Below are positions 799 to 25,692 of a stretch of 42,229 nt of DNA, piece by piece (within the stretch, counting starts at the first letter, position 1; every line of letters begins with the position of its first letter). Both the position numbers and the translations under genes were made by a program. Where the stretch lies: the IMG/VR virus record IMGVR_UViG_2718217897_000004; one strand, 5' to 3'. The notes below the pieces were generated by a model. It was given only the letters and a program-made list of their open reading frames with translations, made no database searches and was not told the DNA's origin. This DNA is from a virus. Its lineage: Duplodnaviria; Heunggongvirae; Uroviricota; Caudoviricetes.

Positions 799-891
799 CG
801 TTTTGCTCGCAAACTCGTCACTTGAACAAAATTGCACGGACAGGGACTGTTAAAATGCCAAATTTCCTGGCATCATGGCAACCATCTGAAC

Positions 892-981
892 GGAGAGATG
901 CCGGAGCGGCTGAACGGACCGGTCTCGAAAACCGGAGTGGGGGCAACTCCACCGGGGGTTCAAATCCCCCTCTCTCCGCCA
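892..981 (+). tRNA. serU: tRNA-Ser (anticodon CGA), prophage attachment site
   Basis: 90-nt sequence GGAGAGATGCCGGAGCGG...CTCGAAA...GGTTCAAATCCCCCTCTCTCCGCCA with long variable arm and anticodon loop containing CGA; integrase gene lies 53 nt downstream. Confidence 0.9.
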
Positions 982-5386: not shown

Positions 5387-5444
5387 AAAAAGGGCGGCAG
5401 AGCAGTCACGGAGTAAAACTGATACCGCCAAACGTCACCAGAAA
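5387..5444 (-). ncRNA. dicF: DicF small regulatory RNA (53 nt) with 3' U-tract
   Basis: Minus strand reads TTTCTGGTGACGTTTGGCGGTATCAGTTTTACTCCGTGACTGCTCTGCCGCCC followed by TTTTT, which matches recalled DicF; sits immediately upstream of dicB as in Qin. Confidence 0.85.
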
Positions 5445-6431: not shown

Positions 6432-6515
6432 TGAGAAATCCTCTGTTTCCCCTTAACGCCGGGGTAGCGGAACTGTTTGCTGAGAACACCGTGCGGTGTC
6501 TTGATGCAAGTAAGA

Positions 6516-6566
6516 TTAGCCATGGCTAACAATTTGGTCAAGCATTTTTGTTTGTCATGACTAACA
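6516..6566. promoter_or_regulatory. Left operator/promoter region: two palindromic repressor sites
   Basis: Perfect 14-bp palindrome TTAGCCATGGCTAA (6516-6529) and near-palindrome TTGTCATGACTAACA (6552-6566), between dicA and the leftward operon. Confidence 0.5.
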
Positions 6567-6601
6567 TTTTGGACAGTCAAAAAGATAACGCATTGATTGC
6601 G

Positions 6602-7009
6602 TTATCTTTTGTTTGTTCGTTGACGGGCTTTTAATAACTCTTCAAAGAGTTTGTTGAAATTTTTTACTCGGGCGCGCATCTCGGTGAGCTGAGCATCCTG
6701 TTCTGATTCAGGCAGTGCATTAAAAAGCTCAAGGAGCTCATGTTCTTTGGGGGATAGAGCAACTGGCTCCTCAATAGGTGGTGATGGCTGCTTGTCTTCA
6801 TCGCCAAATAGAATCCATGTTGGCGAGCACTGCAGTACTTTGCTGAGGGCAAAAAGATTCTTTCCTGTAGGTTCGCTATCATCCCGCTCCCATTGTGAAA
6901 CTGATACGTGAGAAATTTTCAGGGCTTTAGCAAGAGACCTTTGGGTGTATTTGAGGTTTTTTCGGCGATATCTAATGCGTTCGCCAATGGTTAAATTTTT
7001 TGTATCCAT
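6602..7009 (-). CDS. dicA: Repressor DicA (CI-type HTH repressor of the immunity region)
   Basis: 135-aa protein MDTKNLTIGERIRYRRKNLKYTQRSLAKALKISHVSVSQWER... matches recalled DicA in length and sequence. Confidence 0.9.
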   Translation of the reverse strand: MDTKNLTIGERIRYRRKNLKYTQRSLAKALKISHVSVSQWERDDSEPTGKNLFALSKVLQCSPTWILFGDEDKQPSPPIEEPVALSPKEHELLELFNALPESEQDAQLTEMRARVKNFNKLFEELLKARQRTNKR

Positions 7010-7044
7010 AGTTAGCTAATGCTAAATCTTATTGACTATGTTTT

Positions 7045-7076
7045 TGTTAACATCTATTTTGTTAGTCATGGCTAAC
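7045..7076. promoter_or_regulatory. Right operator/promoter region between dicA and dicC
   Basis: GTTAGTCATGGCTAAC (7061-7076) repeats the left-operator core; TGTTAACA palindrome at 7045-7052; divergent promoters expected here. Confidence 0.5.
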
Positions 7077-7092
7077 AATTAAGGTGCTTTAA

Positions 7093-7323
7093 ATGCTTAA
7101 AACTGACGCACTTTTGTATTTCGGTTCAAAAACAAAACTTGCACAAGCTGCTGGTATTCGTTTGGCTTCGCTTTATAGCTGGAAAGGGGAGCTAGTACCT
7201 GAAGGTCGCGCGATGCGCCTGCAAGAGGCATCCGGCGGGGAACTTCAGTACGACCCCAAAGTTTATGACGAATATCGTAAGGCAAAGCGGGCGGGGCGGT
7301 TGAACAATGAAAATCACCCCTGA
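7093..7323 (+). CDS. dicC: DicC (Cro-like regulator), divergent from dicA
   Basis: 76-aa protein MLKTDALLYFGSKTKLAQAAGIRLASLYSWKG... matches recalled DicC in length and sequence. Confidence 0.85.
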   Translation: MLKTDALLYFGSKTKLAQAAGIRLASLYSWKGELVPEGRAMRLQEASGGELQYDPKVYDEYRKAKRAGRLNNENHP

Positions 7324-7858
7324 ACAGGTTTGTGAGGCTCTGGATGCCTGGGTGTGCCGACCAGGAATGACACAGGAGCAGGCGACGATATTAATCACGG
7401 AAGCATTCTGGGCTCTGAAAGAACGCCCGAACATCGATGTTCAACGCGTCACGTTTAATGATGGCGAGGTTGATCAACGGGCGCTGGGCGTTAACCGGGT
7501 GAAGATATTCGAACGCTGGAAAGCTATCGACACCAGGGATAAGCGGGAAAAATTCACGGCGCTGATTCCGGCAATTATGGAGGCTATCCGGATCAGCGAT
7601 TTCAGGTTGTATTGTGAAATTACTGACGGAAAAAGCATTACGTACATGATCGCCGGGTTAAACAAAGAATATGGCGATGTGGTGGAGTCCGGGCTGCTTT
7701 TTGCGGATCCATCTGTTGTGGAACGTGAGACTGACGAGCTTATAGAAAAAGCTATTGCTTTCAAGCATGCGTATCGTCAGCAATATCAATATTACTTTGC
7801 AGATAAACAAATGTCTGCCAGGGGTTCGTATGAGTATCGATGCACTACGATGGGCTAA
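7307..7858 (+). CDS. YdaT-like early protein (proposed CII-analogue family)
   Basis: 183-aa ORF directly after the Cro-like gene; segment REKFTALIPAIMEAI resembles the recalled YdaT segment; position equals lambda cII. Confidence 0.45.
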   Translation: MKITPEQVCEALDAWVCRPGMTQEQATILITEAFWALKERPNIDVQRVTFNDGEVDQRALGVNRVKIFERWKAIDTRDKREKFTALIPAIMEAIRISDFRLYCEITDGKSITYMIAGLNKEYGDVVESGLLFADPSVVERETDELIEKAIAFKHAYRQQYQYYFADKQMSARGSYEYRCTTMG

Positions 7859-8870
7859 AAAGGTGAAAACCGGCAGTTCATCCAGTAAGTCTGTATTGAC
7901 CTGGCTTGCTGATATGTGCGGTGCCGATTTGTGTGCATACCCGTCTGTATCTGCACTGGCAGAAGTAACGGAACTGAACAAAAAGACTGTGCAGGACAGC
8001 TTACGACACCTGATGGAGATTGGGTTAATTGTTGATACCGGTGAGAGAAAAGGCAGAACAAAGCAAATTGTGGTGTACCGACTTATCGGTGTAGATGAAA
8101 GTGTTGCCGAGCCTGAATACACCCAAAAACGGGAGTCTTTAAAGGTGGGTAAAATTGGTGCTGTTAATAAAAACAGTACCGAAAATGGTTATGTTTCAGC
8201 ACAAAACAGACCCAAAAACGGAACTCTTAGCTGCATGGAAAATAACCAAAGACACCCAAATTTTCCATCAAAGACACCCAAAAACGGATCACGGAACCCA
8301 AAGGAACCCAAAGATCTAAACCCCACACATAACGCACGCGAGAATGCCCCGACCAGTGAGCAGGAAGTTTTGTCGTTACAGGCAGCACCCCTTGTATTCC
8401 TGGATGGCCTGAGCGAACCCATCGGAAAATTTCCGATGACCGATAGCTGGTATCCGTCACGGGATTTTCGACGACGGGCTGCGTTGTGGGGGATGGCTTT
8501 GCCGGAGACAGAATTTACACCTGCTGAACTTGCCGTCTTCCGGGACTACTGGGCAGCGGAGGGGAAAGTGTTTACGCAGATTCAGTGGGAGCAGAAATTC
8601 GCCCGTCACGTAAATCACGTCAGGGCGCAGGTTAAACCAGTCAGCAAGGGGGTAAACCATGCAGCAGCACCAGGTGGCACCGCATCACGGGCAGTTCAGG
8701 AAATTCGGGCAGCACGTGAGCAGTGGGAACGTGAAAACGGATTTATCAGCGACGGAAACGGCCTGGAAGCTGTGGGAACTCATGGGGGAGGTTTATTCGA
8801 ACCGCTGGACCCAGAAGAACGGGGCCGCACCTTCGAAGCTCTGGATTGCACAGATTGGCGCGATGACTGA
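7830..8870 (+). CDS. Replication initiation protein (N-terminal winged HTH, C-terminal DnaT-like domain)
   Basis: Start ATG 7830 with AGGGG SD; N-terminus MSIDALRWAKKVKTGSSSSKSVLTWLADMCG... typical of prophage replication proteins; C-terminal DSWYPSRDFRRRAALWGMALPETEFTPAEL...DYWAAEGKVFTQIQWEQKF resembles DnaT-like domain. Confidence 0.7.
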   Translation: MSIDALRWAKKVKTGSSSSKSVLTWLADMCGADLCAYPSVSALAEVTELNKKTVQDSLRHLMEIGLIVDTGERKGRTKQIVVYRLIGVDESVAEPEYTQKRESLKVGKIGAVNKNSTENGYVSAQNRPKNGTLSCMENNQRHPNFPSKTPKNGSRNPKEPKDLNPTHNARENAPTSEQEVLSLQAAPLVFLDGLSEPIGKFPMTDSWYPSRDFRRRAALWGMALPETEFTPAELAVFRDYWAAEGKVFTQIQWEQKFARHVNHVRAQVKPVSKGVNHAAAPGGTASRAVQEIRAAREQWERENGFISDGNGLEAVGTHGGGLFEPLDPEERGRTFEALDCTDWRDD

Positions 8871-9324
8871 GCAGCAAATCCGGCAGGTCTGCCGCGAGTG
8901 CATGGACCGCTGCCGGGCGGGTGAAACATGGCCTCCGGACCTGGCTGAGTTTGTGGCGCTGATTTCGGAAAGCGGGGCCAATCCATTTGGTCTGACGGTG
9001 GATGCTGTGATGGAGGAGTACCGCCGCTGGCGCAATGAGTCCTGGCGATACGACGGAAGTGATAAGTACCCGTGGTCTCAGCCTGTGCTGTATCACATTT
9101 GCCTCGAGATGCGTTCAAAGGGGATTGAACGCCAGATGACCGAAGGGGAATTAAAACGGCTTGCAGAACGGCAGCTGACGAAATGGGCAAAGCATGTTAG
9201 TAACGGCCTGAGCGTTCCGCCAGTACGGCGACAACTGGCGGCACCAAAACGCCCGTTGGGACCAACGCCAATTGAGTTGCTGAAACAGGAATATGAACGC
9301 CGGAAAGCGGCTGGGTTTGTTTGA
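8659..9324 (+). CDS. Second replication-module protein (P-position); start may be ATG 8659 or ATG 8863
   Basis: 221-aa frame with strong AAGGGGG SD before ATG 8659 but 212-nt overlap with the upstream gene; alternative ATG 8863 gives ATGACTGA stop/start coupling. No Walker A motif seen. Confidence 0.5.
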   Translation: MQQHQVAPHHGQFRKFGQHVSSGNVKTDLSATETAWKLWELMGEVYSNRWTQKNGAAPSKLWIAQIGAMTEQQIRQVCRECMDRCRAGETWPPDLAEFVALISESGANPFGLTVDAVMEEYRRWRNESWRYDGSDKYPWSQPVLYHICLEMRSKGIERQMTEGELKRLAERQLTKWAKHVSNGLSVPPVRRQLAAPKRPLGPTPIELLKQEYERRKAAGFV

Positions 9325-9356
9325 GTTGAGAAGTAATTTTTACCGGGAGGAAATTT

Positions 9357-10127
9357 ATGGAGACTGTTTTTGACGCACTGAAAGCAATGGGAAAAGCCAC
9401 GTCGGTAGAACTGGCTACGCGACTTGATATCAGTCGTGAAGAAGTGCTGAACGAGCTGTGGGAACTCAAAAGAAATGGCGTCGTTGATAAAACTGGTCAC
9501 ACCTGGTTTCTGGCTGGCGAAGGTGAATCCCGGGTAACCGAAGAGCGGCCAGTAAAATCTGAAGCACAGGATATGCTGACCGGGGAGGTCGAACAAAAAG
9601 TTACCGCAGACATGATGATTGAGTTTATCGGTCAGGAGGGGGCTAAAACGTGTGAGGAACTGGCGGGTAAGTTCGGTGTCAGTACTCGCAAGGTTGCTTC
9701 CACGCTGGCGGTGGTAACCGCAACGGGGCGGCTGGCACGCGTTAATCAGAACGGTAAATTTCGTTACTGCATGCCGGGCGATAAGTTACCAGCAGAGCCG
9801 AAATCCGTGCCGGTAACGGAAAATGATGGTAAGGCCTTTCCTCAGCCAGCAGGTGTTGCGTTACCAGTACAGGAAGCGGCAACACAGGAAGATATTAAAA
9901 CAGAAACTGTGGCGGACATTGTGCAGTCGCTGCCATCGTTTACTGCAACGCGAGCTGATGATTTGATTTTGCCATCGCTGCATTTGGCAAACCGCGAACT
10001 GCGTCGGGCGAAAAATCATGTCCAGAAGTGGGAGCGTGTCTGCGCCGCGCTGCGGGAGCTGAACAGGCACCGGGATATTGTCCGACAGATTGTCGATTCT
10101 TCCCGCCACGTTGCACCGGAAAAGTGA
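9357..10127 (+). CDS. Hypothetical phage protein with N-terminal winged-helix-like region (recalled as a DUF1627-type prophage protein)
   Basis: 256-aa ORF with GGGAGG SD; N-terminal ...ELATRLDISREEVLNELWELKRNGVV... HTH-like. Confidence 0.6.
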   Translation: METVFDALKAMGKATSVELATRLDISREEVLNELWELKRNGVVDKTGHTWFLAGEGESRVTEERPVKSEAQDMLTGEVEQKVTADMMIEFIGQEGAKTCEELAGKFGVSTRKVASTLAVVTATGRLARVNQNGKFRYCMPGDKLPAEPKSVPVTENDGKAFPQPAGVALPVQEAATQEDIKTETVADIVQSLPSFTATRADDLILPSLHLANRELRRAKNHVQKWERVCAALRELNRHRDIVRQIVDSSRHVAPEK

Positions 10128-10142
10128 TTGTCGGAGGTGATT

Positions 10143-10634
10143 ATGGCAAGAGTATTTACACAGGAAGAACGGGAAGAAGTGAAGGCGCGCATTGTGGAAC
10201 TGGTACGCAGAGATGGGCGGAAAACGCGTAAACAACTGGAAAATGAAACCGGGGCGACAAGACATCTGATAGAAGTTCTGACGAAAGAGCTGGTAGCCAG
10301 TGGTGTTGTATATGGCTCAGGGTATGGAATATTCCCTTCAGCGCAGGCACGTAAGGACTGGATAAAAGCCATCGAAAAGATGTCGAAAGCAAAGTTAAAG
10401 AAACTGGCTGTGGTTGATCCTGACCTTATCTGGTCATTACCAGACGGAGAAATACGCCGCTACGACAGGCGTCAAAACATAATCTGTAGCGAGTGCCGGA
10501 AGAGCGAAGTTATGCAGCGCGTGCTGGCGTTTTATCAAGGAGGTGGTGCTGTGAGTGAAATTAGCTATCAGGCTTCAATTGCCGCTGGCATTTGCATCAA
10601 AGGAGAGGAGCATGGAAATAAAACCAGAAGATGA
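10143..10634 (+). CDS. Hypothetical phage early protein
   Basis: 163-aa frame from ATG 10143 with GGAGG SD; N-terminal charged helix-rich region. Confidence 0.55.
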   Translation: MARVFTQEEREEVKARIVELVRRDGRKTRKQLENETGATRHLIEVLTKELVASGVVYGSGYGIFPSAQARKDWIKAIEKMSKAKLKKLAVVDPDLIWSLPDGEIRRYDRRQNIICSECRKSEVMQRVLAFYQGGGAVSEISYQASIAAGICIKGEEHGNKTRR

Positions 10635-10968
10635 GTTAAGTAATATTGTTTTATTTCCGGTAAAAGAGGATGACCCACGTAATCAGGTTAATTTTCTTTA
10701 TGAGCCATCGGAAAGACCATATTGTCATCACGCCTCTGTCCGGGTTGACGAAAAAGAGCGTCAGGTCCGCTGTAAAATCTGCGGTGCAGTTGTGGAGCCA
10801 TTTGACTGGATGCTCTCTGTGGCGAAAAGAGAAACCAGACTGGCAGATGATGTAAAACTATTGCGCCAGGAGGAACAGGAAAGGCGAAAAAATATAGAAA
10901 AGCTAATTCAGATTGAGCGTAATGCGAAAGCACGGATACGCAGGGTGACAAAATCCAGAACTGAATAA
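10612..10968 (+). CDS. Hypothetical protein with CHH...CxxC zinc-binding motif and basic coiled C-terminus
   Basis: 119-aa frame from ATG 10612 with GGAGAGGAG SD; PYCHHASV...CKICGAV motif. Confidence 0.5.
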   Translation: MEIKPEDELSNIVLFPVKEDDPRNQVNFLYEPSERPYCHHASVRVDEKERQVRCKICGAVVEPFDWMLSVAKRETRLADDVKLLRQEEQERRKNIEKLIQIERNAKARIRRVTKSRTE

Positions 10969-11061
10969 TTAAATTTAGCACTGTTAAAAATTTAATCCTT
11001 AACCGGAGGGATTTCTGCACCCTCAGAACAGCAGGAGGCCACCCGAAAGGGTGGTAGTGAA

Positions 11062-11244
11062 ATGCGAAAGTTCAAAATAATTATTGAAACGGGAATAGCT
11101 GGTGGAGATTTTGAGGATGTATTCGAAGTGGACGATGACGCAACACCTGATGAAATTCATGACGAAGCAAAAGAAATTTTCTTTAACTACTGCAATTACT
11201 CATATCACGAAATAAAAGACGAAGAGGAAGAACAAAATGGCTGA
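11062..11244 (+). CDS. Small acidic hypothetical protein
   Basis: 60-aa ORF; a GNRA-loop hairpin lies between its SD-like AGGAGG and the ATG. Confidence 0.4.
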   Translation: MRKFKIIIETGIAGGDFEDVFEVDDDATPDEIHDEAKEIFFNYCNYSYHEIKDEEEEQNG

Positions 11245-11413
11245 TTTTGGTTCAACTAAATACAACGTCAGTTTTGAAGAATGGCATGAACTGTTAATGG
11301 ACTATGCAGAGTTACGTGGTGGAAGTGCTGCTGATGCTGAAGCCTGGCATGATGACTACGAAGCAGGAAAAACTCCGGTCGAAGCATATTGTGATGAGTG
11401 GGGCGATGAATGA
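11237..11413 (+). CDS. Small acidic hypothetical protein (58 aa, below the ORF-track cutoff)
   Basis: ATG 11237 overlaps upstream stop (ATGGCTGA); stop overlaps next start (GATGAATGAGC); translationally coupled chain. Confidence 0.35.
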   Translation: MADFGSTKYNVSFEEWHELLMDYAELRGGSAADAEAWHDDYEAGKTPVEAYCDEWGDE

Positions 11414-11925
11414 GCGAGATTAATTATCAGGAAGGGCATGAAACGGCAGGGCAGGCAAAACCAGTTGCATGGCGATATCGCTACGTGAAAAAAGGCGTTA
11501 CGGACTCTCAGGGGGAGCCGTGGGTTGGTGACTGGAAATATGTACCGACAAAAGAGGATTGCAACGACAGGCCGAACTATGAAATTCAGGCGTTATTCAC
11601 GGCCCAGCCTGTGCCACTGACACCAGAAGGATTGATTAAAGCAGTGCGTTTCTATGAACAGGTAAAGCGTGAGAATCCACCAGTAGAAACAGGAGCATGG
11701 AAAGATGCTGTTGATTGGGTACTCAAAGAGGCCTGCTGTGCTGTCATTCTGGGTAAAGCCGACAATCCACTAGCATCCAGTAATCAGGTTGGCGAATTAA
11801 CAATGTGGGTTAAACGACTGGTCAGTCAACTGAAAAAAGCTAATCCAGACTGCAAATTACCGGAGAAGGCGATGGACTACCTGAAGCGGAACGAACTGAT
11901 AAGCGCGGAGGATGTTTTGCGATGA
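11410..11925 (+). CDS. Hypothetical phage protein
   Basis: 171-aa ORF coupled to the upstream small gene. Confidence 0.55.
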   Translation: MSEINYQEGHETAGQAKPVAWRYRYVKKGVTDSQGEPWVGDWKYVPTKEDCNDRPNYEIQALFTAQPVPLTPEGLIKAVRFYEQVKRENPPVETGAWKDAVDWVLKEACCAVILGKADNPLASSNQVGELTMWVKRLVSQLKKANPDCKLPEKAMDYLKRNELISAEDVLR

Positions 11926-12005
11926 CCTGGCCTGAAGCATTCACAACGGTAGGAATTGCAATGGCGGTGGCGCTGGTGGTGTATTCGATTTGCCGCTGGG
12001 GGTAA
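11922..12005 (+). CDS. Possible 27-aa hydrophobic peptide (MTWPEAFTTVGIAMAVALVVYSICRWG)
   Basis: ATG overlaps the upstream stop (ATGA); single predicted TM helix; too short for confident calling. Confidence 0.25.
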   Translation: MTWPEAFTTVGIAMAVALVVYSICRWG

Positions 12006-12467
12006 GGTATTAAAAAACGCCCCGTATACAGACGTTGATCGCCTGAGATGTGGGGATAGGGAGTTAGTTAAATAGTTATACAACAATACCTGATTTTATA
12101 TTGAAGCAAGAAATAGGTTGCTACATATTGAATCATGCGCGTGTACGTCAAATATGGGAGGTCATCGTGCTGGTTCTGAAATGTGCGCTGGCTGTTGCGG
12201 CAGTAATGGCAATTTATTGTCTTGTTATCGTTCTTATGAATCACCTCTCTGATTGATTTCATATTGGCGAGGTGATGGGAGTTAAGTAGAATGGCTGCGG
12301 GTGCTTGAGGCTATCTGCCTCGGGCATGAACACCAACGGCAGATAGAGAAAAGCCCCAGTTAACATTACGCGTCCTGCAAGACGTTTAACATTAATCTGA
12401 GGCCCAATCTATGCTTCACAAACGTAGGTTAGCCTCTTACGTGCCGAAAGGCAAGGAGAAGCAGGCT

Positions 12468-12623
12468 ATGAAGCAGCAAAAGGCGATGTTAATCGCCCTG
12501 ATCGTCATCTGTTTAACCGTCATAGTGACGGCACTGGTAACGAGGAAAGACCTCTGCGAGGTACGAATCCGAACCGGCCAGACGGAGGTCGCTGTCTTCA
12601 CAGCTTACGAACCTGAGGAGTAA
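12468..12623 (+). CDS. hok: Hok/Gef-family type I toxin (51 aa)
   Basis: MKQQKAMLIALIVICLTVIVTALVTRKDLCEVRIRTGQTEVAVFTAYEPEE carries the Hok signature LTRK-LCE-R-R-G--EVA-F-AYE; in-frame upstream extension from 12411 resembles a mok-like leader; structured leader and terminator flank it. Confidence 0.8.
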   Translation: MKQQKAMLIALIVICLTVIVTALVTRKDLCEVRIRTGQTEVAVFTAYEPEE

Positions 12624-12691
12624 GAGACCTGGCGGGGGAGAAATCCCTCGCCACCTCTGATGTGTCAGGCATCCTCAACGCACCCGCACTT

Positions 12692-12723
12692 AACCCGCTT
12701 CGGCGGGTTTTTGTTTTTATTTT
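12692..12723 (+). terminator. Rho-independent terminator of the hok transcript
   Basis: CCCGC-TTCG-GCGGG hairpin followed by a T-run. Confidence 0.55.
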
Positions 12724-12843
12724 CAACGCGTTTGAAGTTTTAGATTGTGCCGGAATAGAATCAAAAATACTTAAGTAGCGCGCAGGGAGAAGAGGGATGG
12801 ACCCCGAACAGGGGAGTGCTATTTATCTGGAAGGATTCTGTTG

Positions 12844-13104
12844 ATGAAAATCGAAGAATTACGTGAAATTTTTAGTGAAGATGGCCTCTATACTGTGCGC
12901 GTTGAGAATGGCGCTATTGTCAGCCACTGCCGTATTAAATGTTTACAGTCTCAACAAAGGAAGAGTGGAGCTGCGTTAATTCATTTTGTGGATGGGCTTG
13001 TGACGGATGGTTTTATTTTGCGTGCAAATGAATTTGTCACATCGTTGCCGTCTCTGAAAGAAGCTGGGATTAAGGCTGGTTTTTCTGCTTTTGAAGATGA
13101 GTGA
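12844..13104 (+). CDS. Hypothetical protein
   Basis: 86-aa frame from ATG 12844 with AAGGA SD 8 nt upstream. Confidence 0.45.
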   Translation: MKIEELREIFSEDGLYTVRVENGAIVSHCRIKCLQSQQRKSGAALIHFVDGLVTDGFILRANEFVTSLPSLKEAGIKAGFSAFEDE

Positions 13105-13170
13105 ATTCATCTACAATTCAGCGCAGGGCTGAACCCCTGTTGAGTAACACTGTGCCACCGGAGAAAGCCG

Positions 13171-13449
13171 ATGGCGCAAAATTCCAGACTACACAATTCT
13201 GATAATTCAGCCGTCTTTGCCAGCAGGCACGGGCGGCGTTCTCATGCATTCAAATCTGACTGGTTCCAGCACGCCCCATGCACTGAAGAACAGGCCGAAT
13301 GGCTGATTCAGTGTTACCGCAGACACGGATACGAGATTAAGAAAGCCCTCAGCCTCGATTATCGTCACTGGATAATCTCCGTCAGGCTTCCTTACTCCGA
13401 ACGCCCACCGCGTCCGTCCCGCACATTCCAGCAACGGATCTGGAGGTAA
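13171..13449 (+). CDS. Hypothetical protein
   Basis: 92-aa ORF with GGAG SD; stop overlaps the SD of the next gene. Confidence 0.45.
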   Translation: MAQNSRLHNSDNSAVFASRHGRRSHAFKSDWFQHAPCTEEQAEWLIQCYRRHGYEIKKALSLDYRHWIISVRLPYSERPPRPSRTFQQRIWR

Positions 13450-13450
13450 C

Positions 13451-14506
13451 GTGCGGGTATTACTTCGACCTGTTCTGGTACCGGAACTCGGGCTGGTGGT
13501 CCTTAAGCCCGGTCGTGAATCCATGCCGGTATTTCACAATCCTCGAGTGCTGGTGGAGCCGGAACCGAAAAGCATGCGCGGTCTGCCGTCCGGAGTCGTT
13601 CCTGCTGTTCGCCAGCCGCTGGCTGAGGATAAATCATTACTGCCATTTTTCAGCGATGAGCGGGTGATTCGTGCTGCTGGTGGTGCTGGTGCATTGTCTG
13701 ACTGGCTGTTGCGCCATATTAAATCCTGCCAGTGGCCACACGGCGATTATCATCACAGCGAAACCGTTATTCACCGATATGGTACCGGCGCAATGGTGTT
13801 GTGCTGGCACTGCGACAACCAGCTGCGTGACCAGACATCCGAATCACTCGGGCAACTTGCTCATCAAAACCTGTCAGCATGGATGATTGACGTCATCGGT
13901 CACGCAATAAGCGGTACGCAGGAGCGGGAGTTATCTCTGGCTGAATTATCCTGGTGGGCGGTCCGCAATCAGGTGGCGGACGCGCTACCGGAAGCGGTAT
14001 TACGTCGTTCGCTGGGGTTGCGTGCGGAAAAAATCCGCTCAATGTACCGTGAAAGCGACATCGTACCGGGAGAGCAGACCGCCACCAGCATACTGAAGCA
14101 GCGCACAAAAAATCTTGCGCCGCTGCCTCACGCCCACCAGCAAAACCCGCCACAGGAAGAGACGGTGGTCAGCATTGCCGTTGATCCGGAGTCACCGGCT
14201 CAGTATCTCCAGCGCCAGAAACCACAACGGGAAGAGATGCCTGTATACACGCGCTGGGTAAAAACGCAGAAATGCATGACGTGCGGTAATCAGGCAGATG
14301 ATCCGCATCACATCATTGGTCATGGACTGGGAGGGATGGGAACAAAGGCTGATGATTTGTTTGTTATTCCGCTGTGCCGTAAATGTCATAACGAACTGCA
14401 CGCCGGGGTAAAAGATTTTGAAGAAAAACACGGCAGCCAGCTGTTGTTGCTGATTCGTTTTTTAATGCACGCGAGAAATTCGGGTGTCCTGAAGTGGAAA
14501 GCATGA
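13451..14506 (+). CDS. DUF968-type protein with C-terminal HNH-like zinc-finger nuclease motif (YdfU-like)
   Basis: 351 aa, GTG start with GGAGG SD; C-terminal CMTCGNQADDPHHIIGHGLGG...CRKCHNELH motif. Confidence 0.7.
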   Translation: MRVLLRPVLVPELGLVVLKPGRESMPVFHNPRVLVEPEPKSMRGLPSGVVPAVRQPLAEDKSLLPFFSDERVIRAAGGAGALSDWLLRHIKSCQWPHGDYHHSETVIHRYGTGAMVLCWHCDNQLRDQTSESLGQLAHQNLSAWMIDVIGHAISGTQERELSLAELSWWAVRNQVADALPEAVLRRSLGLRAEKIRSMYRESDIVPGEQTATSILKQRTKNLAPLPHAHQQNPPQEETVVSIAVDPESPAQYLQRQKPQREEMPVYTRWVKTQKCMTCGNQADDPHHIIGHGLGGMGTKADDLFVIPLCRKCHNELHAGVKDFEEKHGSQLLLLIRFLMHARNSGVLKWKA

Positions 14507-14872
14507 ATGACTGAACGCATAGAATTTGTTTTGCCTTACCCGCCGACGGTGAATACCTACTGGCGACGTCATGGCAATACGTATTTCATCTCGGAGGCCG
14601 GAAAGCGTTATCGCCATGATGTGGCGCTAATTGTTCGCCAGCAGCGGTTGAAATTAAACCTGTCCGGAAGGCTGGCGATAAAGATTATTGCAGAGCCACC
14701 GGATAAGCGCCGTCGTGACCTGGACAATATCCTGAAAGCACCACTGGATGCGCTGACGCATGCCGGACTACTCATAGACGACGAGCAGTTTGATGAAATC
14801 AATATTGTGCGCGGTCAGCTCGTTCCTGGTGGGCGGCTGGGGATAAAAATCACAGAACTGGAGTGCGCATGA
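14507..14872 (+). CDS. rusA: Holliday-junction resolvase RusA
   Basis: 121-aa protein with ...TVNTYWRRHGN...DKRRRDLDNILKAPLDALTHAG... matching the RusA family; start overlaps upstream stop. Confidence 0.88.
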   Translation: MTERIEFVLPYPPTVNTYWRRHGNTYFISEAGKRYRHDVALIVRQQRLKLNLSGRLAIKIIAEPPDKRRRDLDNILKAPLDALTHAGLLIDDEQFDEINIVRGQLVPGGRLGIKITELECA

Positions 14873-15558
14873 ATAACCAGTATTTACAGTTTGTGCGTGA
14901 GCAGCTCATTATCGCCACCGCTGATTTGAGTGGGGCAACAAAAGGTCAGCTTGAAGCCTGGCAGGAGAATGCCATGTTCGATACAGGGCGTTACAGGCGA
15001 AAAAAAATCCGGTACCGCGATGAAGTGACTGGAAAAATGATAACGCGGGATAATCCACCAATCCCGGGAAAACAATCACTGGCGAATGGCTCATCAATTG
15101 CCCTAGTCAGCCCGGTTGAGTTTTCGACATCATCATGGCGGCGGGCTTTGCTGTCTCTTGAAGAGCATCATAAAGCCTGGTTGTTGTGGTGTTACGGCGA
15201 GAGTATTTGTTGGGAATATCAGATCGCGATAACACAGTGGGCGTGGAATGAATTTAATACTCAATCCGGTACCAGAAAAATTGCAGGGAAAACGCAGGAA
15301 CGCCTGAAAAAATTAATCTGGCTGGCGGCGCAGGCAGTAAAAGCAGAACTTTTTGGTGGGGAAGGTTATGAATACCAGGAGCTGGCATTACTGGCGGGAG
15401 TGACAACTAAAAACTGGTCCAAAACATTTACTCGTCACTGGGTTGCAATGAAACACATTTTTCAACGACTGGATAGTGAGGCTTTATTGTTTGTAATGAG
15501 AACACGTTCAAAACAAAAGGCGGCATTTTCAAAGCAAAGTGTTGCAAAAGTAGATTGA
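14869..15558 (+). CDS. Putative late-gene antiterminator (Q-position protein)
   Basis: 230-aa ORF between rusA and the lysis region, followed by a terminator; call is positional, no Q zinc-finger recognised. Confidence 0.45.
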   Translation: MNNQYLQFVREQLIIATADLSGATKGQLEAWQENAMFDTGRYRRKKIRYRDEVTGKMITRDNPPIPGKQSLANGSSIALVSPVEFSTSSWRRALLSLEEHHKAWLLWCYGESICWEYQIAITQWAWNEFNTQSGTRKIAGKTQERLKKLIWLAAQAVKAELFGGEGYEYQELALLAGVTTKNWSKTFTRHWVAMKHIFQRLDSEALLFVMRTRSKQKAAFSKQSVAKVD

Positions 15559-15623
15559 AAGGCATATATTTCATGCAAATCTGATATTTTGCCGATTTTG
15601 TACGTGATGGCAAAAGCAAACAA

Positions 15624-15648
15624 AACCCGCCCACAAGCGGGTTTTTTT
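15624..15648 (+). terminator. Rho-independent terminator downstream of the Q-like gene (tR'-like)
   Basis: ACCCGC-CCACAA-GCGGGT hairpin followed by TTTTTTT. Confidence 0.55.
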
Positions 15649-15731
15649 GTGCCACTTATCTCGGATAGACATGGTGAATGCGCTGGTGGAGGAAGTAAGA
15701 GTGATTTTTAACCAGTTGATTTTTTGAGTGC

Positions 15732-15760
15732 TTGCAACATTGATTTCGTAACGTTATTAT
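15732..15760 (+). promoter_or_regulatory. Sigma70-type promoter for the tRNA cluster
   Basis: TTGCAA, 17-bp spacer, TATTAT, ending 9 nt upstream of the first tRNA. Confidence 0.5.
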
Positions 15761-15769
15761 CCTGCGCCC

Positions 15770-15845
15770 GGCCCTTTAGCTCAGTGGTAAGAGCGAGCGA
15801 CTCATAATCGCCAGGTCGCTGGTTCAAATCCAGCAAGGGCCACCA
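15770..15845 (+). tRNA. tRNA with CAU anticodon, Ile2(LAU)-like (ileX/ileZ-like)
   Basis: 76 nt, acceptor GGCCCTT/AAGGGCC, anticodon loop CTCATAA; resembles recalled ileX. Confidence 0.8.
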
Positions 15846-15846
15846 G

Positions 15847-15923
15847 CCGCCACTAGCTCATCAGGAAAGAGCGTCAACCCTTTAAGTTGAGTGTGCGAGG
15901 TTCGAGTCCCCGGTGGCGATCCA
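15847..15923 (+). tRNA. tRNA-like gene of uncertain isotype (possibly degenerate)
   Basis: Cloverleaf can be drawn but with C1-A72 mismatch, one T-stem mismatch and anticodon loop CCTTTAA (C at position 33; anticodon would be UUU). Confidence 0.4.
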
Positions 15924-15925
15924 GT

Positions 15926-16001
<76 letters not shown>

Positions 16002-16004
16002 TAT

Positions 16005-16079
<75 letters not shown>

Positions 16080-16285
16080 GTTAGAGTCTTTCAGTCTGCG
16101 ATGATGGGAAATCCCGGAGTGACTGAAAGACGTTTAAGTTATGAATGATCGCTTTTTTTGCAAAATTGCTGTGCAGAAATACTAACCTTCGGGCAGGCGA
16201 TCATTCATAAGCACTCTGCTTTTATTCCGATTAACTGTGGGTGGTTTGTTGGATAGAGTGCTTCCCTTACTGTATATATCGTTTC

Positions 16286-16310
16286 GCCCGCTTTTGCGGG
16301 TTTTTCTTTT
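16286..16310 (+). terminator. Rho-independent terminator immediately upstream of the holin gene
   Basis: CCCGC-TTTT-GCGGG hairpin followed by TTTTTCTTTT. Confidence 0.5.
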
Positions 16311-16370
16311 CAAATCCCTTTCATTTCTCAGTGTAAAACTACGCCATCCGTTATTTGCGGAGGTGAGGCT

Positions 16371-16586
16371 ATGAAATCCATGGACAAAATTTCAACGGGC
16401 ATTGCCTACGGCACCTCCGCAGGCAGTGCTGGCTACTGGTTTTTACAGTGGCTTGATCAGGTCAGTCCTTCACAGTGGGCTGCGATTGGTGTACTGGGGA
16501 GTCTGGTTCTGGGCTTCCTGACTTATCTGACAAATCTGTACTTCAAAATCAGAGAAGACAAGCGTAAGGCTGCACGGGGAGAGTAA
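16371..16586 (+). CDS. Holin, phage-21 S21-type pinholin with dual-start motif
   Basis: 71-aa [53 protein letters not shown]... matches recalled S21 sequence; Met1/Met4 dual start. Confidence 0.85.
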
Positions 16587-16590
16587 TTCA

Positions 16591-16941
16591 ATGACTCAAA
16601 ACTATGAACTGATTGTGAAAGGGATCCGCAATTTTGAGAATAAAGTTACGGTAACTTTAGCGTTACGGGACAAAAAACGCTTTGACGGCGAAATTTTTGA
16701 CCTGGACATCTCGCTGGACCGTGTTGAAGGTGCCGCGCTGGAGTTTTATGAGGCAGCAGCCAGAAGGAGCATCAGACAGGTCTTCCTGGATGTTGCTGCC
16801 GGGTTATGTGAAGGGGATGAGCAGTCGCCGGAAAAGCGCCCCGTAATTTTAGAGGCGCAGAATGTGTGGATAACCTACAAAGGAAAGCTACCAGGAAGAA
16901 TTACTGGTTCTCTGAAGACTCCTCCGGAATCACAACCTTAA
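16591..16941 (+). CDS. YdfR-like uncharacterised protein inserted between holin and endolysin
   Basis: 116-aa ORF with GGAGAG SD; same position as Qin ydfR; no TM segment. Confidence 0.5.
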   Translation: MTQNYELIVKGIRNFENKVTVTLALRDKKRFDGEIFDLDISLDRVEGAALEFYEAAARRSIRQVFLDVAAGLCEGDEQSPEKRPVILEAQNVWITYKGKLPGRITGSLKTPPESQP

Positions 16942-17004
16942 GTCACTGACCGGAACAGATAAACCTGTCCGTGGGCAGAAACCGATAAATCCTGATAAAT
17001 ATCC

Positions 17005-17538
17005 ATGAACGCAATAATCAGATACGGCCTGTCGGCTGCCGTTCTGGCACTGATTGCCGTCGGTGCGCCCGCGCCTGATATTCTCGACCAGTTTCTGGAT
17101 GAAAAAGAAGGTAACCACACAACGGCATACCGCGATGGTTCCGGCATCTGGACCATCTGTCGGGGTGCCACGATGGTGGATGGAAAACCCGTTTTTCCCG
17201 GTATGAAACTGTCGAAGGAAAAATGCGACCAGGTCAACGCCATTGAGCGTGATAAGGCGCTGGCATGGGTGGAGCGCAATATTAAAGTACCACTGACCGA
17301 ACCACAAAAAGCGGGTATCGCGTCATTTTGTCCCTATAACATTGGCCCCGGTAAGTGTTTTCCATCGACGTTTTATAAGCGGCTGAATGCTGGTGATCGT
17401 AAGGGCGCATGCGAGGCGATTCGCTGGTGGATAAAAGATGGTGGGCGCGATTGCCGCATACGTTCAAATAACTGCTATGGACAGGTTATTCGTCGTGACC
17501 AGGAAAGCGCATTAGCCTGTTGGGGAATAGATCAGTGA
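17005..17538 (+). CDS. SAR endolysin (T4-lysozyme-type, glycoside hydrolase family 24)
   Basis: 177 aa; N-terminal weakly hydrophobic Ala/Gly-rich signal-anchor-release segment; E...D...T catalytic spacing ([23 protein letters not shown]). Confidence 0.85.
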
Positions 17539-18002
17539 GCAGAGTCGCCGCGATTATTTATGCTCTGGTTATCTGCATCATCGTCTGCCTGTCGTGGGCG
17601 GTCAATCATTACCGTGATAACGCCATCACCTACAAAGAACAGCGTGATAAAAAAGTCAGTGAGCTGAAGCAGCTGACCGCCACCATCGCTGACATGCAGC
17701 AGCGTCAGCGTGATGTTGCTGCGCTCGATGCAAAGTACTCGAGAGAATTAGCCAATGCGAAAGCTGAAAATGAAACTCTGCGCGCTGATGTTGCCGCTGG
17801 TCGTAAGCGCCTGCGGGTCAATGCCAGTTGCTCCGCAGCCGTGCGTGAAGCCACCGGACCCACCAGCGTGGATAATGCAACCAGCCCCAGACTGGCAGAC
17901 ACCGCTGAACGGGATTATTTCACCCTCAGAGAACGGTTGATGACGATGCAGAAGCAACTGGAAGGGGCACAGCTATACATTCGTGAGCAATGTCTCAGAT
18001 AA
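17535..18002 (+). CDS. Spanin inner-membrane subunit Rz
   Basis: GTG start overlapping endolysin stop; [34 protein letters not shown]... closely matches recalled lambda Rz. Confidence 0.85.
17755..17940 (+). CDS. Spanin outer-membrane lipoprotein Rz1, embedded in the +1 frame of Rz
   Basis: [22 protein letters not shown]...[32 protein letters not shown] matches recalled lambda Rz1; lipobox VSAC. Confidence 0.8.
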
Positions 18003-18157
18003 AAACCGGCCAAGGATAATCCGCTAAAGATTCGCCGGTGGCGAAAGAGAGCCAAGGTGTCAACCTACGCTATTACTTATGATAATGCAACAGACGAAGC
18101 GGGACATATTGGCGCATAACAAATCAGTGCAGGCTAACTGCAGGAAGAACTTAGGGC

Positions 18158-18424
18158 GTGAACGTAGAAAACCTAAGTAACGCACATTACATCTATAACG
18201 AGATGAAAGAGCTACAGCGACAGAAAGGTATACTGGAAAGTGGTGCAGGGCTTGGTGTGACAATCCAGTCTGCCTATCAATATAGTGCTTTTCTTGAGGC
18301 CATACGCCCGCATGCAGTTGCTGAACTTAACAGCCGTATTGAGGAAAAGAAATCCGCGCTGGTTAATTTGGGTGCTTCCTTCTCTATATACGAGCATAAT
18401 AAGGCGGGTTGGAAACCCGCCTAA
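18158..18424 (+). CDS. Hypothetical ORF (doubtful)
   Basis: 88-aa frame with GTG start and weak SD; its 3' end is encoded by a GC hairpin that looks like a bidirectional terminator. Confidence 0.25.
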   Translation: MNVENLSNAHYIYNEMKELQRQKGILESGAGLGVTIQSAYQYSAFLEAIRPHAVAELNSRIEEKKSALVNLGASFSIYEHNKAGWKPA

Positions 18425-18429
18425 AGCAC

Positions 18430-18969
18430 TTAGAAACTGCGTGGAGCTGTGGAAAGAATGGATGCCAGTTCTTCCTTCGATAAATCCCAGCTTCGATTTA
18501 CAGCGTCAATTTTCTTAAACTCATCAAGCATTGCGTTATAGAGATGTTCTGTACGTGAATGAGTATTGGCAATGGGCTGTTTCTGTTCGGGGAAGCGATC
18601 AATTTTCTGATATGCCTCAATGATACTGAAGTAATCGCATTCATTATGACCGTCGAAACCTGGGAGCTGAATTTCCCCATCATGTATTTTTAGATGATGG
18701 TCACGGACTAATTCTTTTTGCTCGTCATCACTAAGTTTCCTGAAAGCATTGGAAAGTCCGCGGTACATATTCAAGACAGCAGTAACAAAATCACGATCTT
18801 CTTTACTTGGTTCATCAACATCCAAATGTGAATATTCGGCCTTCATAACCCAATCATTACCAGATGACACAGCATATTTTACAAGCTGTGGATCAATATC
18901 AGTTTCGATACCTAGGTGGATGGCAATGTCACATAACAAAATGGTATTGATTTTATCCTTAATATCCAT
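18430..18969 (-). CDS. YfbU-family (UPF0304-like) protein, reverse-oriented moron between lysis and packaging modules
   Basis: 179-aa ORF on the opposite strand to all surrounding late genes; segments ...LPGFDGHNECDYFSIIEAY... and ...NAMLDEFKKID... resemble recalled YfbU. Confidence 0.55.
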   Translation of the reverse strand: MDIKDKINTILLCDIAIHLGIETDIDPQLVKYAVSSGNDWVMKAEYSHLDVDEPSKEDRDFVTAVLNMYRGLSNAFRKLSDDEQKELVRDHHLKIHDGEIQLPGFDGHNECDYFSIIEAYQKIDRFPEQKQPIANTHSRTEHLYNAMLDEFKKIDAVNRSWDLSKEELASILSTAPRSF

Positions 18970-19107
18970 GAGTTAACCCTCTGAAGTAAAAAGTAATATC
19001 TACACCCGTTAGCTCATGAAGTCTATTGATCTGGCTCATATCAGCGGCAAATCTATTTCATGGAGATACTCAATGCAGGTCACTTTTGATTTATATAAGG
19101 GCGAAAC

Positions 19108-19458
19108 ATGCCAGCACTAATCCCACGAGCCTGCCGTAAACGTGGATGTGCAGGTACAACCACAGACAGTTCTGGTTACTGCGATAAACATCGTGGCGAA
19201 GGATGGGTACAGCATCAACGCGGACTGAGCCGCCACCAGCGTGGCTATGGCTCGAAATGGGATGCCATACGTGCGCGCATACTGAAGCGTGATAATCATC
19301 TGTGTCAGAACTGCCTGCGCAATGGGAGAGCCGTTGAAGCCAGAACTGTGGACCACATCATTCCGAAAGCTCATGGTGGCACGGATGCAGACAGTAACCT
19401 GCAGAGTCTGTGCTGGCCCTGTCATAAAGCAAAAACAGCGCGCGAACGCATCAATTGA
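19108..19458 (+). CDS. HNH endonuclease (terminase-associated)
   Basis: 116 aa with CxxC...CxxC and HNH motif DHIIPKAHGGTDADSNLQSLCWPCHKAKT; immediately upstream of terminase genes. Confidence 0.85.
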   Translation: MPALIPRACRKRGCAGTTTDSSGYCDKHRGEGWVQHQRGLSRHQRGYGSKWDAIRARILKRDNHLCQNCLRNGRAVEARTVDHIIPKAHGGTDADSNLQSLCWPCHKAKTARERIN

Positions 19459-19605
19459 TAACGGTTCCCATCTGTAGGGGAGGGGCGGGTCAAATCTCTG
19501 CAACCCTGGCTGCTCAGTACCGCCGCCTGACCTTTCCTCGCATCGCCGCAGGTTCGAAAACTTTTTTTTGGAATGTGATTAAATGATTGATAGGTAAAAC
19601 CGATT

Positions 19606-20088
19606 ATGCCTGGACCCCCGAAAACCCCGCCACGCCTGCATTTGATACGAGGTAACCCCTCAAAGCGGCCAGTTAAAGACTCCAAAAAAAACGCTAAAAA
19701 GGATGAAAAAGGTCTCCCTAAAATTCCGCAACATTTAGGGGCGCAGGGGAAGTACTGGTTCAGGCGAATGGCGGAAGAACTGAATGCGGAAGGGATCATT
19801 TCTCAGCTCGATGCGCGTGCACTCGAGTTACTGGTGGAAGCCTACACCGAATACCGGCATCACTGTGAAACACTCGATGCTGAGGGTTATACCTACCGCA
19901 CGGAAACGCAGAACGGTGATGTGCTGATTAAGGCACACCCGGCTGCTGCGATGAAGGCGGATGCCTGGAAGCGGATCCGGGCGATGCTTGCAGAGTTTGG
20001 TATGTCACCGGCAAGCCGGGCGAAAGTAAATACCGCCGGACCGGATGATGTTGATCCGCTGGCGGAGCTTTTAAAAGCGAGAGACTGA
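19606..20088 (+). CDS. Terminase small subunit
   Basis: 160-aa basic N-terminus protein directly coupled (TGATG) to the large terminase ORF. Confidence 0.75.
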   Translation: MPGPPKTPPRLHLIRGNPSKRPVKDSKKNAKKDEKGLPKIPQHLGAQGKYWFRRMAEELNAEGIISQLDARALELLVEAYTEYRHHCETLDAEGYTYRTETQNGDVLIKAHPAAAMKADAWKRIRAMLAEFGMSPASRAKVNTAGPDDVDPLAELLKARD

Positions 20089-25378: not shown

Positions 25379-25684
25379 ATGATGCCCACTCTGGAAGAGC
25401 TTCGTGTTCAGTGCCGGATTGATGATGACAATGAACAGGAGAATTCTCTTCTTATGATGTATCTGGCTGCCGCCAGGGAAGAGGCTGAAAAGTTTTTAAA
25501 CCGGACGCTTTACGATGAAACTGTTTCTGAGCAGGATACGACCGGGCTTGTAATAACACCTCTGATAAAACTGCGTCTTATGCAACTGGTTGGCTACTGG
25601 TACGAGAACAGGGAAATGCAGGATGCAGTGCCTGATTTTTTCTATACCGGACTGCGGATGTATCGGTTTCATCCCGGGACATAG
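25379..25684 (+). CDS. Head-tail connector / DNA-packaging protein (gp6-like)
   Basis: 101-aa ORF with GAGGT SD in the canonical position after the capsid gene. Confidence 0.65.
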   Translation: MMPTLEELRVQCRIDDDNEQENSLLMMYLAAAREEAEKFLNRTLYDETVSEQDTTGLVITPLIKLRLMQLVGYWYENREMQDAVPDFFYTGLRMYRFHPGT

Positions 25685-25692
25685 GAGGATTC

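Follow-up and report, generated by a model that had tools for sequence, protein, structure and literature searches.

Then, could a short toxin gene in the early region of a prophage belong to a complete type I toxin-antitoxin module, with its antisense RNA and its fold-back elements? This question is raised by a stretch of viral DNA of 42,229 nucleotides (Caudoviricetes; IMG/VR record IMGVR_UViG_2718217897_000004), which is called the window here, and for which an earlier note had proposed a Hok-family type I toxin locus in the prophage early region at 12270-12723. All the elements named in that proposal were found, and they match the hok/sok family. That is, the region 12264-12719 of the window is a full hok/mok/sok type I toxin-antitoxin module. 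The proposed extent is mostly right, except for its start, since the -35 element of the hok promoter (TTGGCG, 12264-12269) precedes 12270. We are highly confident that the module is intact and of the hokD type, that its subtype is common to it and hokW-sokW of Sakai prophage 5 (Sp5), and that it lies within the early-right part of a Qin-like lambdoid prophage, co-oriented with its neighbours. Such a locus is ordinary and already known: annotations name it hokD or MokW, and the close copy hokW-sokW has been characterised by experiment. No second hok copy was found when the window was searched with tblastn and Rfam.

For the comparative analysis, 53 hok loci were gathered from one-genome-per-species contigs, and 37 complete mRNAs were aligned. 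The loci sampled come from Escherichia, Shigella, Kluyvera, Citrobacter, Pseudocitrobacter, Pantoea, Photorhabdus and Erwinia. The TadA editing site, the 18-nt hairpin extension of Sok and the identity with hokD and hokW, all described below, were not part of the earlier note.

The hok and mok genes and their transcript

The toxin gene hok is located at 12468-12623 on the plus strand, encodes 51 aa plus stop (MKQQKAMLIALIVICLTVIVTALVTRKDLCEVRIRTGQTEVAVFTAYEPEE), and is 100% identical at the nucleotide level to the hok coding sequence of hokD (relF) in E. coli K-12. The Hok/Gef-type toxin of 51 aa that had been read from the sequence is borne out by a full-length match of the product to Pfam PF01848 HOK_GEF (E 1.2e-23; 82.9 bits against a cutoff of 22), and by a match to PHROG 251 'MokW-like host killing' (E 2.8e-33). 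The identical protein WP_000813254.1 is labelled HokD by PGAP. The scores against NCBIfam NF007279 'type I TA system Hok family toxin' (48.5 bits) and NF007290 HokA (40.2 bits) are below the respective cutoffs of 73 and 89; these two HMMs are models of other Hok subgroups. Substitutions that would inactivate the toxin, when compared with active Hok proteins, were not found, and the peptide is identical to K-12 HokD, which served as the toxic positive control in a recent survey (bioRxiv 10.1101/2025.08.07.668861). The product would be expected to be toxic in its own host as well.

The mok-like extension upstream of hok could be located precisely. It is a reading frame of 70 codons (12411-12623, plus strand), which begins with the ATG at 12411, is read in the hok frame and shares the stop codon with hok, the same in-frame arrangement as in the annotated mokC/hokC of K-12. 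The mok ATG is kept in at least 90% of the 37 aligned loci. The mok Shine-Dalgarno sequence GAGG (12399-12402, plus strand) is 8 nt 5' of this ATG and is invariant in 37/37 loci, and GAGG is likewise the mok Shine-Dalgarno sequence of plasmid R1 (PMC9841398). The hok Shine-Dalgarno sequence GGAG (12455-12458, plus strand), 9 nt 5' of the hok ATG, overlaps the -35 region of the sok promoter on the opposite strand, and AAGGAG at this site is near-invariant among the aligned loci.

In addition, a putative TadA editing hairpin was identified within hok (12601-12615, plus strand). It consists of a 3-bp stem (12601-12603/12613-12615) around UACGAA, where the Tyr47 codon UAC is followed by G (12606-12609), and A-to-I editing of A12607 would recode Tyr to Cys. 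UACGAA is invariant (37/37), and the TACG motif occurs at the Hok Tyr that is aligned with Cys46 of HokB. The stem is 99% paired over the 37 loci, with C-G in 23 and U-A in 14 at one pair, and G-C in 24 and A-U in 11 at another. It is absent from the single-sequence MFE fold, because the stem is too weak. TACG is the motif of TadA, and K-12 hokD is reported to be edited at 6% at the equivalent Tyr (PMC5630033; PMC12214031). The Cys produced by editing pairs with a hard-coded Cys, which is Cys30 here (bioRxiv 10.1101/2025.08.07.668861; PMC5630033; PMC12214031). Editing of Tyr47 (UAC) to Cys by TadA is likely to be a further layer of the system.

Upstream of mok, a sigma-70-like candidate promoter for hok/mok is located at 12264-12292 on the plus strand (-35 TTGGCG at 12264-12269, a 17-nt spacer, -10 TAGAAT at 12287-12292), and 9 of the 12 consensus positions are matched in a consensus scan. 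The hokW locus has kept this -10 element and its distance from +1, and we infer that this is the functional hok promoter. The full-length hok mRNA is predicted to be about 418 nt long (12299-12716, plus strand), with G12299 as the putative +1 and the 3' end within the T-run after the terminator. Position 1 of Rfam RF01794 aligns to 12299, the predicted promoter ends 6 nt upstream, and 37/37 of the aligned homologues start with GGG(U/C)GCUU. The predicted fold of the full-length mRNA has an MFE of -174.6 kcal/mol, with z = -7.1 against shuffles.

The leader, counted from the putative +1 (12299) up to the hok ATG, has a length of 169 nt. It had been proposed as a structured leader of roughly 150 nt, of which the structure holds and the length does not: the RF01794 match (12299-12473) scores 113.1 bits (E 4e-25) against a gathering score of 59. 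At the other end of the transcript, the intrinsic terminator that had been noted was recovered at 12692-12719 (plus strand), as a GC-rich 7-bp stem at 12692-12709 with a UUCG loop and then the T-run TTTGTTTTT. A further stem-loop at 12630-12653 (plus strand), just 5' of fbi, appears as a 10-bp hairpin in the folds and is conserved across loci. It is likely that this stem-loop would cap the processed, truncated hok mRNA, as the equivalent stem-loop of R1 shields truncated hok mRNA (PMC9841398).

The Sok antisense RNA and the alternative folds of the mRNA

On which strand, and where, is the antitoxin encoded? The plus-strand match to RF01794, which is named 'sok', was considered as Sok itself and rejected. 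The model is 157 nt long, extends from the tac start to the hok AUG, and hits the sense strand of hokC and hokB in K-12, opposite to the annotated sokC and sokB. Therefore, the plus-strand match in the window is the leader, and Sok is on the minus strand. The earlier note had placed Sok on the minus strand over about 12360-12430; the strand is right, and the span is close to the 71-nt putative Sok RNA that we place at 12419 to 12349 (minus strand) by homology to sokC and sokW. When the minus strand is aligned with annotated sokC (59 nt), the Sok 5' end is G12419 and the homologous 3' end is 12343. The complementarity of sokW is 71 nt (PMC8621323), which leads to a Sok RNA from 12419 to 12349 with a CUUUU end. 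The predicted fold of this RNA (-25.7 kcal/mol, z -3.7) is composed of a free 5' tail of 14 nt, a long terminator hairpin and a U-tail, and the 5' tail covers the mok start codon. This architecture is conserved with the annotated sokC and sokB.

The alignment with known hok/sok loci, which had been suggested as a check, placed both the sok promoter and the tac/fbi elements. By homology, the sok promoter is located at 12454 to 12426 on the minus strand, with the -35 element TTGCCT at 12454 to 12449, a 17-nt spacer and the -10 element TAACCT at 12431 to 12426, and Sok would be expressed from it. The same 29-mer is found in the hokW locus and also in several further loci. For sokW, mutation of the -10 element (primers YO-421/422; AGGTTA, that is, TAACCT) abolished the protection by Sok, and sokW in trans partly restored growth, the complementing clone corresponding to 12317-12471 of the window (PMC8621323). 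The consensus promoter scan missed the sok promoter, because its -10 element TAACCT matches the consensus at only 3/6 positions.

The Sok hairpin of the window contains an extension of 18 nt, at about 12369-12386, which is not present in hokC, hokB (sokC, sokB) or the Rfam consensus. It is found in 13/37 loci and forms a covarying stem, whose inner stem is G-C in 11, G-U in 1 and A-U in 1. When a tie between the extension and a prophage setting was looked for, the flanking genes of the window were shared by 3 of the 12 other long-hairpin loci and by none of the short-hairpin loci, in a test that detects only the window's own neighbours.

For the mRNA, the fold-back pair tac/fbi, which was expected from the earlier note, was found as a 12-bp helix in the MFE structure. 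The tac (translational activator) element is located at 12299-12310 (plus strand; GGGUGCUUGAGG) and has three alternative partners, namely the metastable site, ucb and fbi. The metastable partner (12317-12327, plus strand; GCCUCGGGCAU) is predicted to pair with mRNA nt 3-13 in a 5' hairpin that arises during transcription, and the first 32 nt of the hok mRNA can indeed fold as such a tac hairpin. A metastable 5' hairpin has been described for the R1 hok mRNA (PMC9841398). The ucb, or anti-Shine-Dalgarno, element AAGCCCC (12351-12357, plus strand) would have tac as its partner in the processed mRNA and the mok Shine-Dalgarno sequence as its partner in the full-length mRNA. In the full-length MFE fold, AAGCCCC/GCCCCAG (about 12351-12359) pairs with CUGAGGC, which includes the mok Shine-Dalgarno sequence. 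The resulting ucb/mok-SD hairpin of the full-length mRNA (12353-12403, plus strand) has the Sok terminator hairpin as its complement and encloses the 18-nt extension. The isolated 5' part of the mRNA folds into the tac/ucb hairpin, which is the consensus structure in Rfam.

The dcb element GCCUC (12432-12436, plus strand) pairs with the mok Shine-Dalgarno region at 12399-12403 and encloses the mok AUG, and the SD/dcb hairpin is the predicted target of Sok in the processed mRNA. It forms in the local fold of the window sequence and is also present in the Rfam consensus structure. The fbi (fold-back inhibitory) element is located at 12673-12685 (plus strand; CCUCAACGCACCC) and forms 12 bp with tac, with one bulged C; in the MFE structure, mRNA nt 1-12 (tac) are paired with nt 375-387 (fbi). 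When the mRNA was ended arbitrarily at 12668, the MFE structure was the metastable hairpin, not the expected tac/ucb open form.

Are these helices maintained in other hok loci? The covariation counts given here are counts of sequences, not of independent events, and most changes split few clades, such as Escherichia versus Photorhabdus. For the tac/fbi helix, 89% of cells are paired, and tac nucleotide 4 (column 4/411) forms U-A in 22, C-G in 11 and U-G in 2 sequences. For the metastable hairpin, 96.6% of cells are paired over the 37 loci, and column 4/28 is U-A in 24 and C-G in 12. For the ucb/SD hairpin, 87.6% of cells are paired, with 6 pairs that covary by double changes. The observed covariation score was reached by 0/500 shuffles for each of these three helices. 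As a further control, slid versions were only 30-55% paired, compared with 89-97% for tac/fbi and the metastable hairpin. Thus one tac nucleotide, at position 4, covaries with both its fbi partner and its metastable partner, and a single nucleotide that covaries with two alternative partners is a hallmark of the hok mRNA folding pathway. The compensatory changes across genera indicate selection on the RNA folds.

The other two helices behave differently. For tac/ucb, 99% of cells are paired and the helix is invariant; consequently, covariation is uninformative for it. For the SD/dcb hairpin, 75.5% of cells are paired, and no covariation signal was found among the 37 loci. Its 5 outer pairs are invariant, so that covariation cannot test them, and its inner pairs are weakly conserved, at about 50-60% paired.

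Known relatives and genomic context

The nearest characterised relative is hokW-sokW of Sp5 and the 933W-type Stx2 phages (PMC8621323), which, like the locus in the window, is carried by a lambdoid prophage. The two leaders are nearly identical from the -10 element through mok, the 18-nt extension included, and both loci have a Hok of 51 aa, an in-frame mok of 70 aa and the same fbi sequence. The differences are about 8 substitutions in the Sok 5' tail and loop region, the C-terminus of Hok (FTAYEPEE in the window and FVDYESEK in HokW), and divergence after fbi, where the terminator is different.

The comparison with K-12 hokD, which is located in the cryptic prophage Qin, is of another kind. 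Here, besides the coding sequence, the hok Shine-Dalgarno sequence, fbi, the terminator and the downstream rem-like/DUF968 region are homologous, with 96% identity over window positions 12454-12858, and dicB, DicF, dicA and dicC are carried by both the prophage of the window and Qin. However, the homology begins at 12454, and K-12 hokD is therefore without the hok promoter, tac, ucb, the mok start, dcb and the Sok RNA, all of which are 5' of 12454. It is also without most of the sok promoter, that is, the -10 element and all of the -35 element except its first base. K-12 hokD is reduced to the part from 12454 onward because the leader and sok have been replaced by relBE, the 3' end of relE being located there. 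The linkage of hokD to relBE is absent in the window, whose prophage is integrated at tRNA-Ser/mtfA and not at the Qin site of K-12. This replacement is the 'genomic rearrangement' cited for K-12 hokD (PMC12214031). The window thus presents the unrearranged form, namely hokD before its regulatory half was lost to relBE.

Another K-12 locus, hokC (gef)/mokC/sokC, has the same layout as that in the window, with mok in frame and Sok overlapping the mok start. Its tac-ucb region closely resembles that of the window, and the two Hok proteins share 82% identity. The differences are that sokC is annotated with 59 nt and is without the 18-nt hairpin extension, and that hokC is separated from its own fbi by IS186, about 20 nt past the stop codon.

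On plasmid R1, the reading frames of mok and hok differ, Sok is 64 nt long, and the plasmid-borne system acts in post-segregational killing. The R1 hok/mok/sok (parB) system follows the same logic as the module described here, with tac/fbi, ucb/SD and SD/dcb pairing, a metastable hairpin, 3' processing and RNase III (PMC9841398). HokW, a near relative of the Hok in the window, is 44% identical to R1 Hok (PMC8621323).

As for the prophage itself, the 581 bp taken around the locus as a query are found with 100% identity in a prophage of E. coli AVS0193, which is integrated between mtfA/tRNA-Ser and late genes, and window positions 6446-21784 align to this prophage at 98.9%. According to the AVS0193 annotation, dicA/dicC, a YdaT-family gene, DnaT-like and P-like replication genes and several unknown ORFs are upstream of hok. 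The annotation transferred from the same prophage gives a rem-like ORF, DUF968/HNH, RusA and Q downstream of hok. All genes from dicC through Q, hok included, are on the plus strand. The position between the replication genes and a nin-like block, as it had been described, thus agrees with the annotated AVS0193 prophage, from which it follows that hok has the DnaT-like and P-like genes on one side and DUF968/RusA/Q on the other. DicF RNA, dicB and ydfABC were also found, which identifies the element as a Qin-like lambdoid prophage.

The locus is by no means rare. It has matches in 4717 of 5426 complete E. coli genomes, in 101 phage records and in many plasmids, and among the 4717 matching E. 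coli genomes, 2937 cover at least 80% of the query, the leader included. Plasmids of about 92-97 kb carry the same subtype, annotated as hokD, at about 89% identity.

Proposed mechanism and role

How would such a module work? In the model established for R1 hok/sok (PMC9841398), a weak constitutive promoter would give a stable mRNA, of about 418 nt here. During synthesis, tac would pair with the nearby downstream site as the metastable hairpin. In the finished mRNA, tac would be paired with fbi and the mok Shine-Dalgarno sequence covered by ucb, a form open neither to translation nor to Sok binding. Slow trimming from the 3' end would then remove fbi and allow the tac/ucb helix and the target hairpin of the mok Shine-Dalgarno sequence and dcb to form. 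At this stage, Sok, a labile RNA of 71 nt from the convergent promoter, would bind and the duplex would be cut by RNase III; alternatively, mok would be translated, with coupled translation of Hok. Hok would enter the inner membrane, and the membrane potential would collapse.

The role of the module is most likely to help lysis after prophage induction. HokW is toxic, Sok is lost after mitomycin C in a RecA-dependent manner in hokW-sokW, and HokW is seen about 1 h ahead of the R endolysin (PMC8621323). Deletion of hokW-sokW halved phage release and left growth under normal conditions unchanged (PMC8621323). By analogy with this system, Sok would be lost on prophage induction and Hok would appear before the endolysin, so that lysis and phage release would be helped.

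The main role may instead be the maintenance of the prophage, by killing of the cells that lose it, or an abortive-infection defence, rather than the phage's own lysis. R1 hok/sok stabilises plasmids and lowers T4 plating (bioRxiv 10.1101/2025.08.07.668861; PMC8621323), prophages show an approximately four-fold enrichment of hok genes (bioRxiv 10.1101/2025.08.07.668861), and the presence of the same subtype on plasmids of about 92-97 kb points in the same direction. However, Hok, Mok and the neighbouring ORFs had no hits among the PADLOC defence-system models, hok was not enriched in the vicinity of defence systems in the survey (bioRxiv 10.1101/2025.08.07.668861), and the Sp5 deletion lowered phage release with no effect on normal growth (PMC8621323). 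We consider it unlikely, though deserving of some weight, that this is the main role; help in lysis, prophage maintenance and phage exclusion are not mutually exclusive.

Could the module, structurally intact as it is, be a silent selfish passenger that no longer kills, as with the chromosomal hok loci that Pedersen and Gerdes examined, its conservation reflecting recent spread along with prophages rather than a function? Such silence has precedents, for the hok loci of K-12 are reported to be inactivated by IS elements or rearrangement (PMC12214031) and other chromosomal loci gave negative results (bioRxiv 10.1101/2025.08.07.668861), and by consensus the hok promoter of the window is weak (9/12). 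However, all the regulatory elements are intact here and compensatory changes are seen across genera. Moreover, the near-identical hokW-sokW has measurable phenotypes (PMC8621323), and the HokD peptide is toxic (bioRxiv 10.1101/2025.08.07.668861). We consider a silent passenger improbable. It is hardly credible that there is no antisense control at all, with the 70-aa Mok-Hok as a phage membrane protein of the usual kind (holin-like or a moron) and Sok-like features that merely accompany the leader structure: phage annotators do often call the 70-aa 'MokW' ORF only, and the sok -10 element is poor (3/6) and was missed by the scan, but the identical promoter drives the protective sokW RNA (PMC8621323), the architecture of Sok recurs in annotated sokC and sokB, and the tac/fbi and metastable covariations fit a hok-type folding pathway only.

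Returning to the reading in which Hok assists lysis, the release of Hok may be tied to prophage induction by where the module lies and which way it points, with the 18-nt Sok extension marking a subfamily adapted to (pro)phages. This is a speculative idea drawn from the arrangement of the genes, and we think it quite doubtful. The hok gene is inside the early-right operon and co-directional with it, and the predicted sok promoter points head-on into the operon, so strong antiterminated read-through from the early promoter after induction could occlude the sok promoter. If this were true, read-through would account for the fast, RecA-dependent disappearance of Sok in hokW, Hok would be a timed lysis accessory, and the subfamily with the 18-nt extension would have an altered Sok stability.

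The locus also illustrates a gap in annotation. Genome pipelines mark the hok coding sequence alone or the 70-aa mok ORF alone, and the Rfam 'sok' model puts the antitoxin on the wrong strand. The coordinates of Sok, the promoter, the tac/ucb/dcb/fbi elements and the putative editing site could be transferred to thousands of prophages. The ORFs at 12437-12601 and 12259-12366 on the minus strand, and at 12660-12743 and 12662-12778 on the plus strand, lie over the RNA elements and were judged to be mechanical products of ORF calling, not genes. The minus-strand ORF at 12259-12366 is homologous to an ORF annotated in phage HannyBb (L059 1560-1667).

Strand of Sok and the ucb/SD Hairpin

RF01794, which bears the name "sok antitoxin" in Rfam, is a 157-nt model built on the sense strand of the hok mRNA, extending from tac as far as the AUG of hok. 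Matches to it therefore lie on the opposite strand from the true Sok RNA, and a pipeline that annotates with RF01794 would assign the antitoxin to the wrong strand. In the Rfam model search, such matches were located at 12299-12473 (+) in the window, and at 502-654 (-) and 767-918 (-) in L002 and L004, two records with other hok loci.

At its tip, the ucb/SD hairpin, which doubles as the terminator hairpin of Sok, carries an 18-nt structured extension at about 12369-12386 (both strands). This extension, present in 13 of the 37 loci with aligned mRNAs, defines a subtype to which hokD/hokW-type loci from Escherichia and several Kluyvera loci belong.

Prophage Context

The prophage is integrated at a tRNA-Ser gene (892-981), next to mtfA, and contains a full-length DicF sRNA at 5392-5443 (-) with a score of 76.7 bits. 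In the near-identical prophage of E. coli AVS0193, the orthologues of dicB, ydfD, ydfABC, dicA and dicC are found around DicF. Based on the full-length DicF and these neighboring orthologues, the prophage is an intact-looking relative of the cryptic prophage Qin of K-12. Similarity to the AVS0193 prophage ends after about 21784, except for a single patch with 85% similarity at 25682-26043. In its late (structural) region the prophage is of a different type, a mosaic typical of lambdoid prophages. In addition, a cluster of four tRNA genes lies downstream of the Q antiterminator and ahead of the holin at 15770-16079 (+), and these were identified by ARAGORN as Met(cat), Lys(ttt), Thr(tgt) and Gly(tcc). 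PGAP annotates the first of them as tRNA-Ile in the related prophage.

The relBE-hok Junction and Other Occurrences of hok

The K-12-type junction, which joins the 3' end of relE to the sequence immediately preceding the hok SD, was also found when the 190 nt upstream of hok were compared (L008 and L029), both in E. coli ECDA1023 and in a Kluyvera species, the Hok of the latter being only 70% identical to that of the window. Since the junction occurs in ECDA1023 and also with a divergent Hok in Kluyvera, the relBE-hok arrangement is not an accident specific to K-12.

Near-identical E. coli-type hok sequences were also noted on small contigs of 275, 431 and 2995 bp (L019, L024 and L057). The assemblies concerned are labeled Acinetobacter idrijaensis, Xanthomonas pisi and a "Candidatus Scatousia" MAG, and contamination is the most likely source of the hok sequences in them.

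Small Reading Frames and a Promoter-Like Site Flanking hok

Upstream of hok, a hydrophobic ORF of 27 aa, MTWPEAFTTVGIAMAVALVVYSICRWG, is located at 11922-12005 (+), and its ATG overlaps the stop codon of the preceding 171-aa ORF. Pfam and PHROG searches returned no match for it. The forward primer for cloning hokW-sokW from Sp5 matches its first codons, and the ORF also precedes hok as a conserved feature in L006 and L011, two further loci that do not differ from each other in the hok region extracted. A possible hydrophobic peptide of 29 aa at 12167-12256 (+), with a GTG start and GGGAGG 7 nt upstream, directly adjoins the hok promoter on its upstream side; it has no family match, and the frame may be spurious. 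On the other side, a promoter-like site, TTGAAG-18-TAGAAT (12732-12761, +), lies directly 3' of the hok terminator and upstream of a rem-like ORF (12841-13104), and in K-12 this site is kept between hokD and rem.
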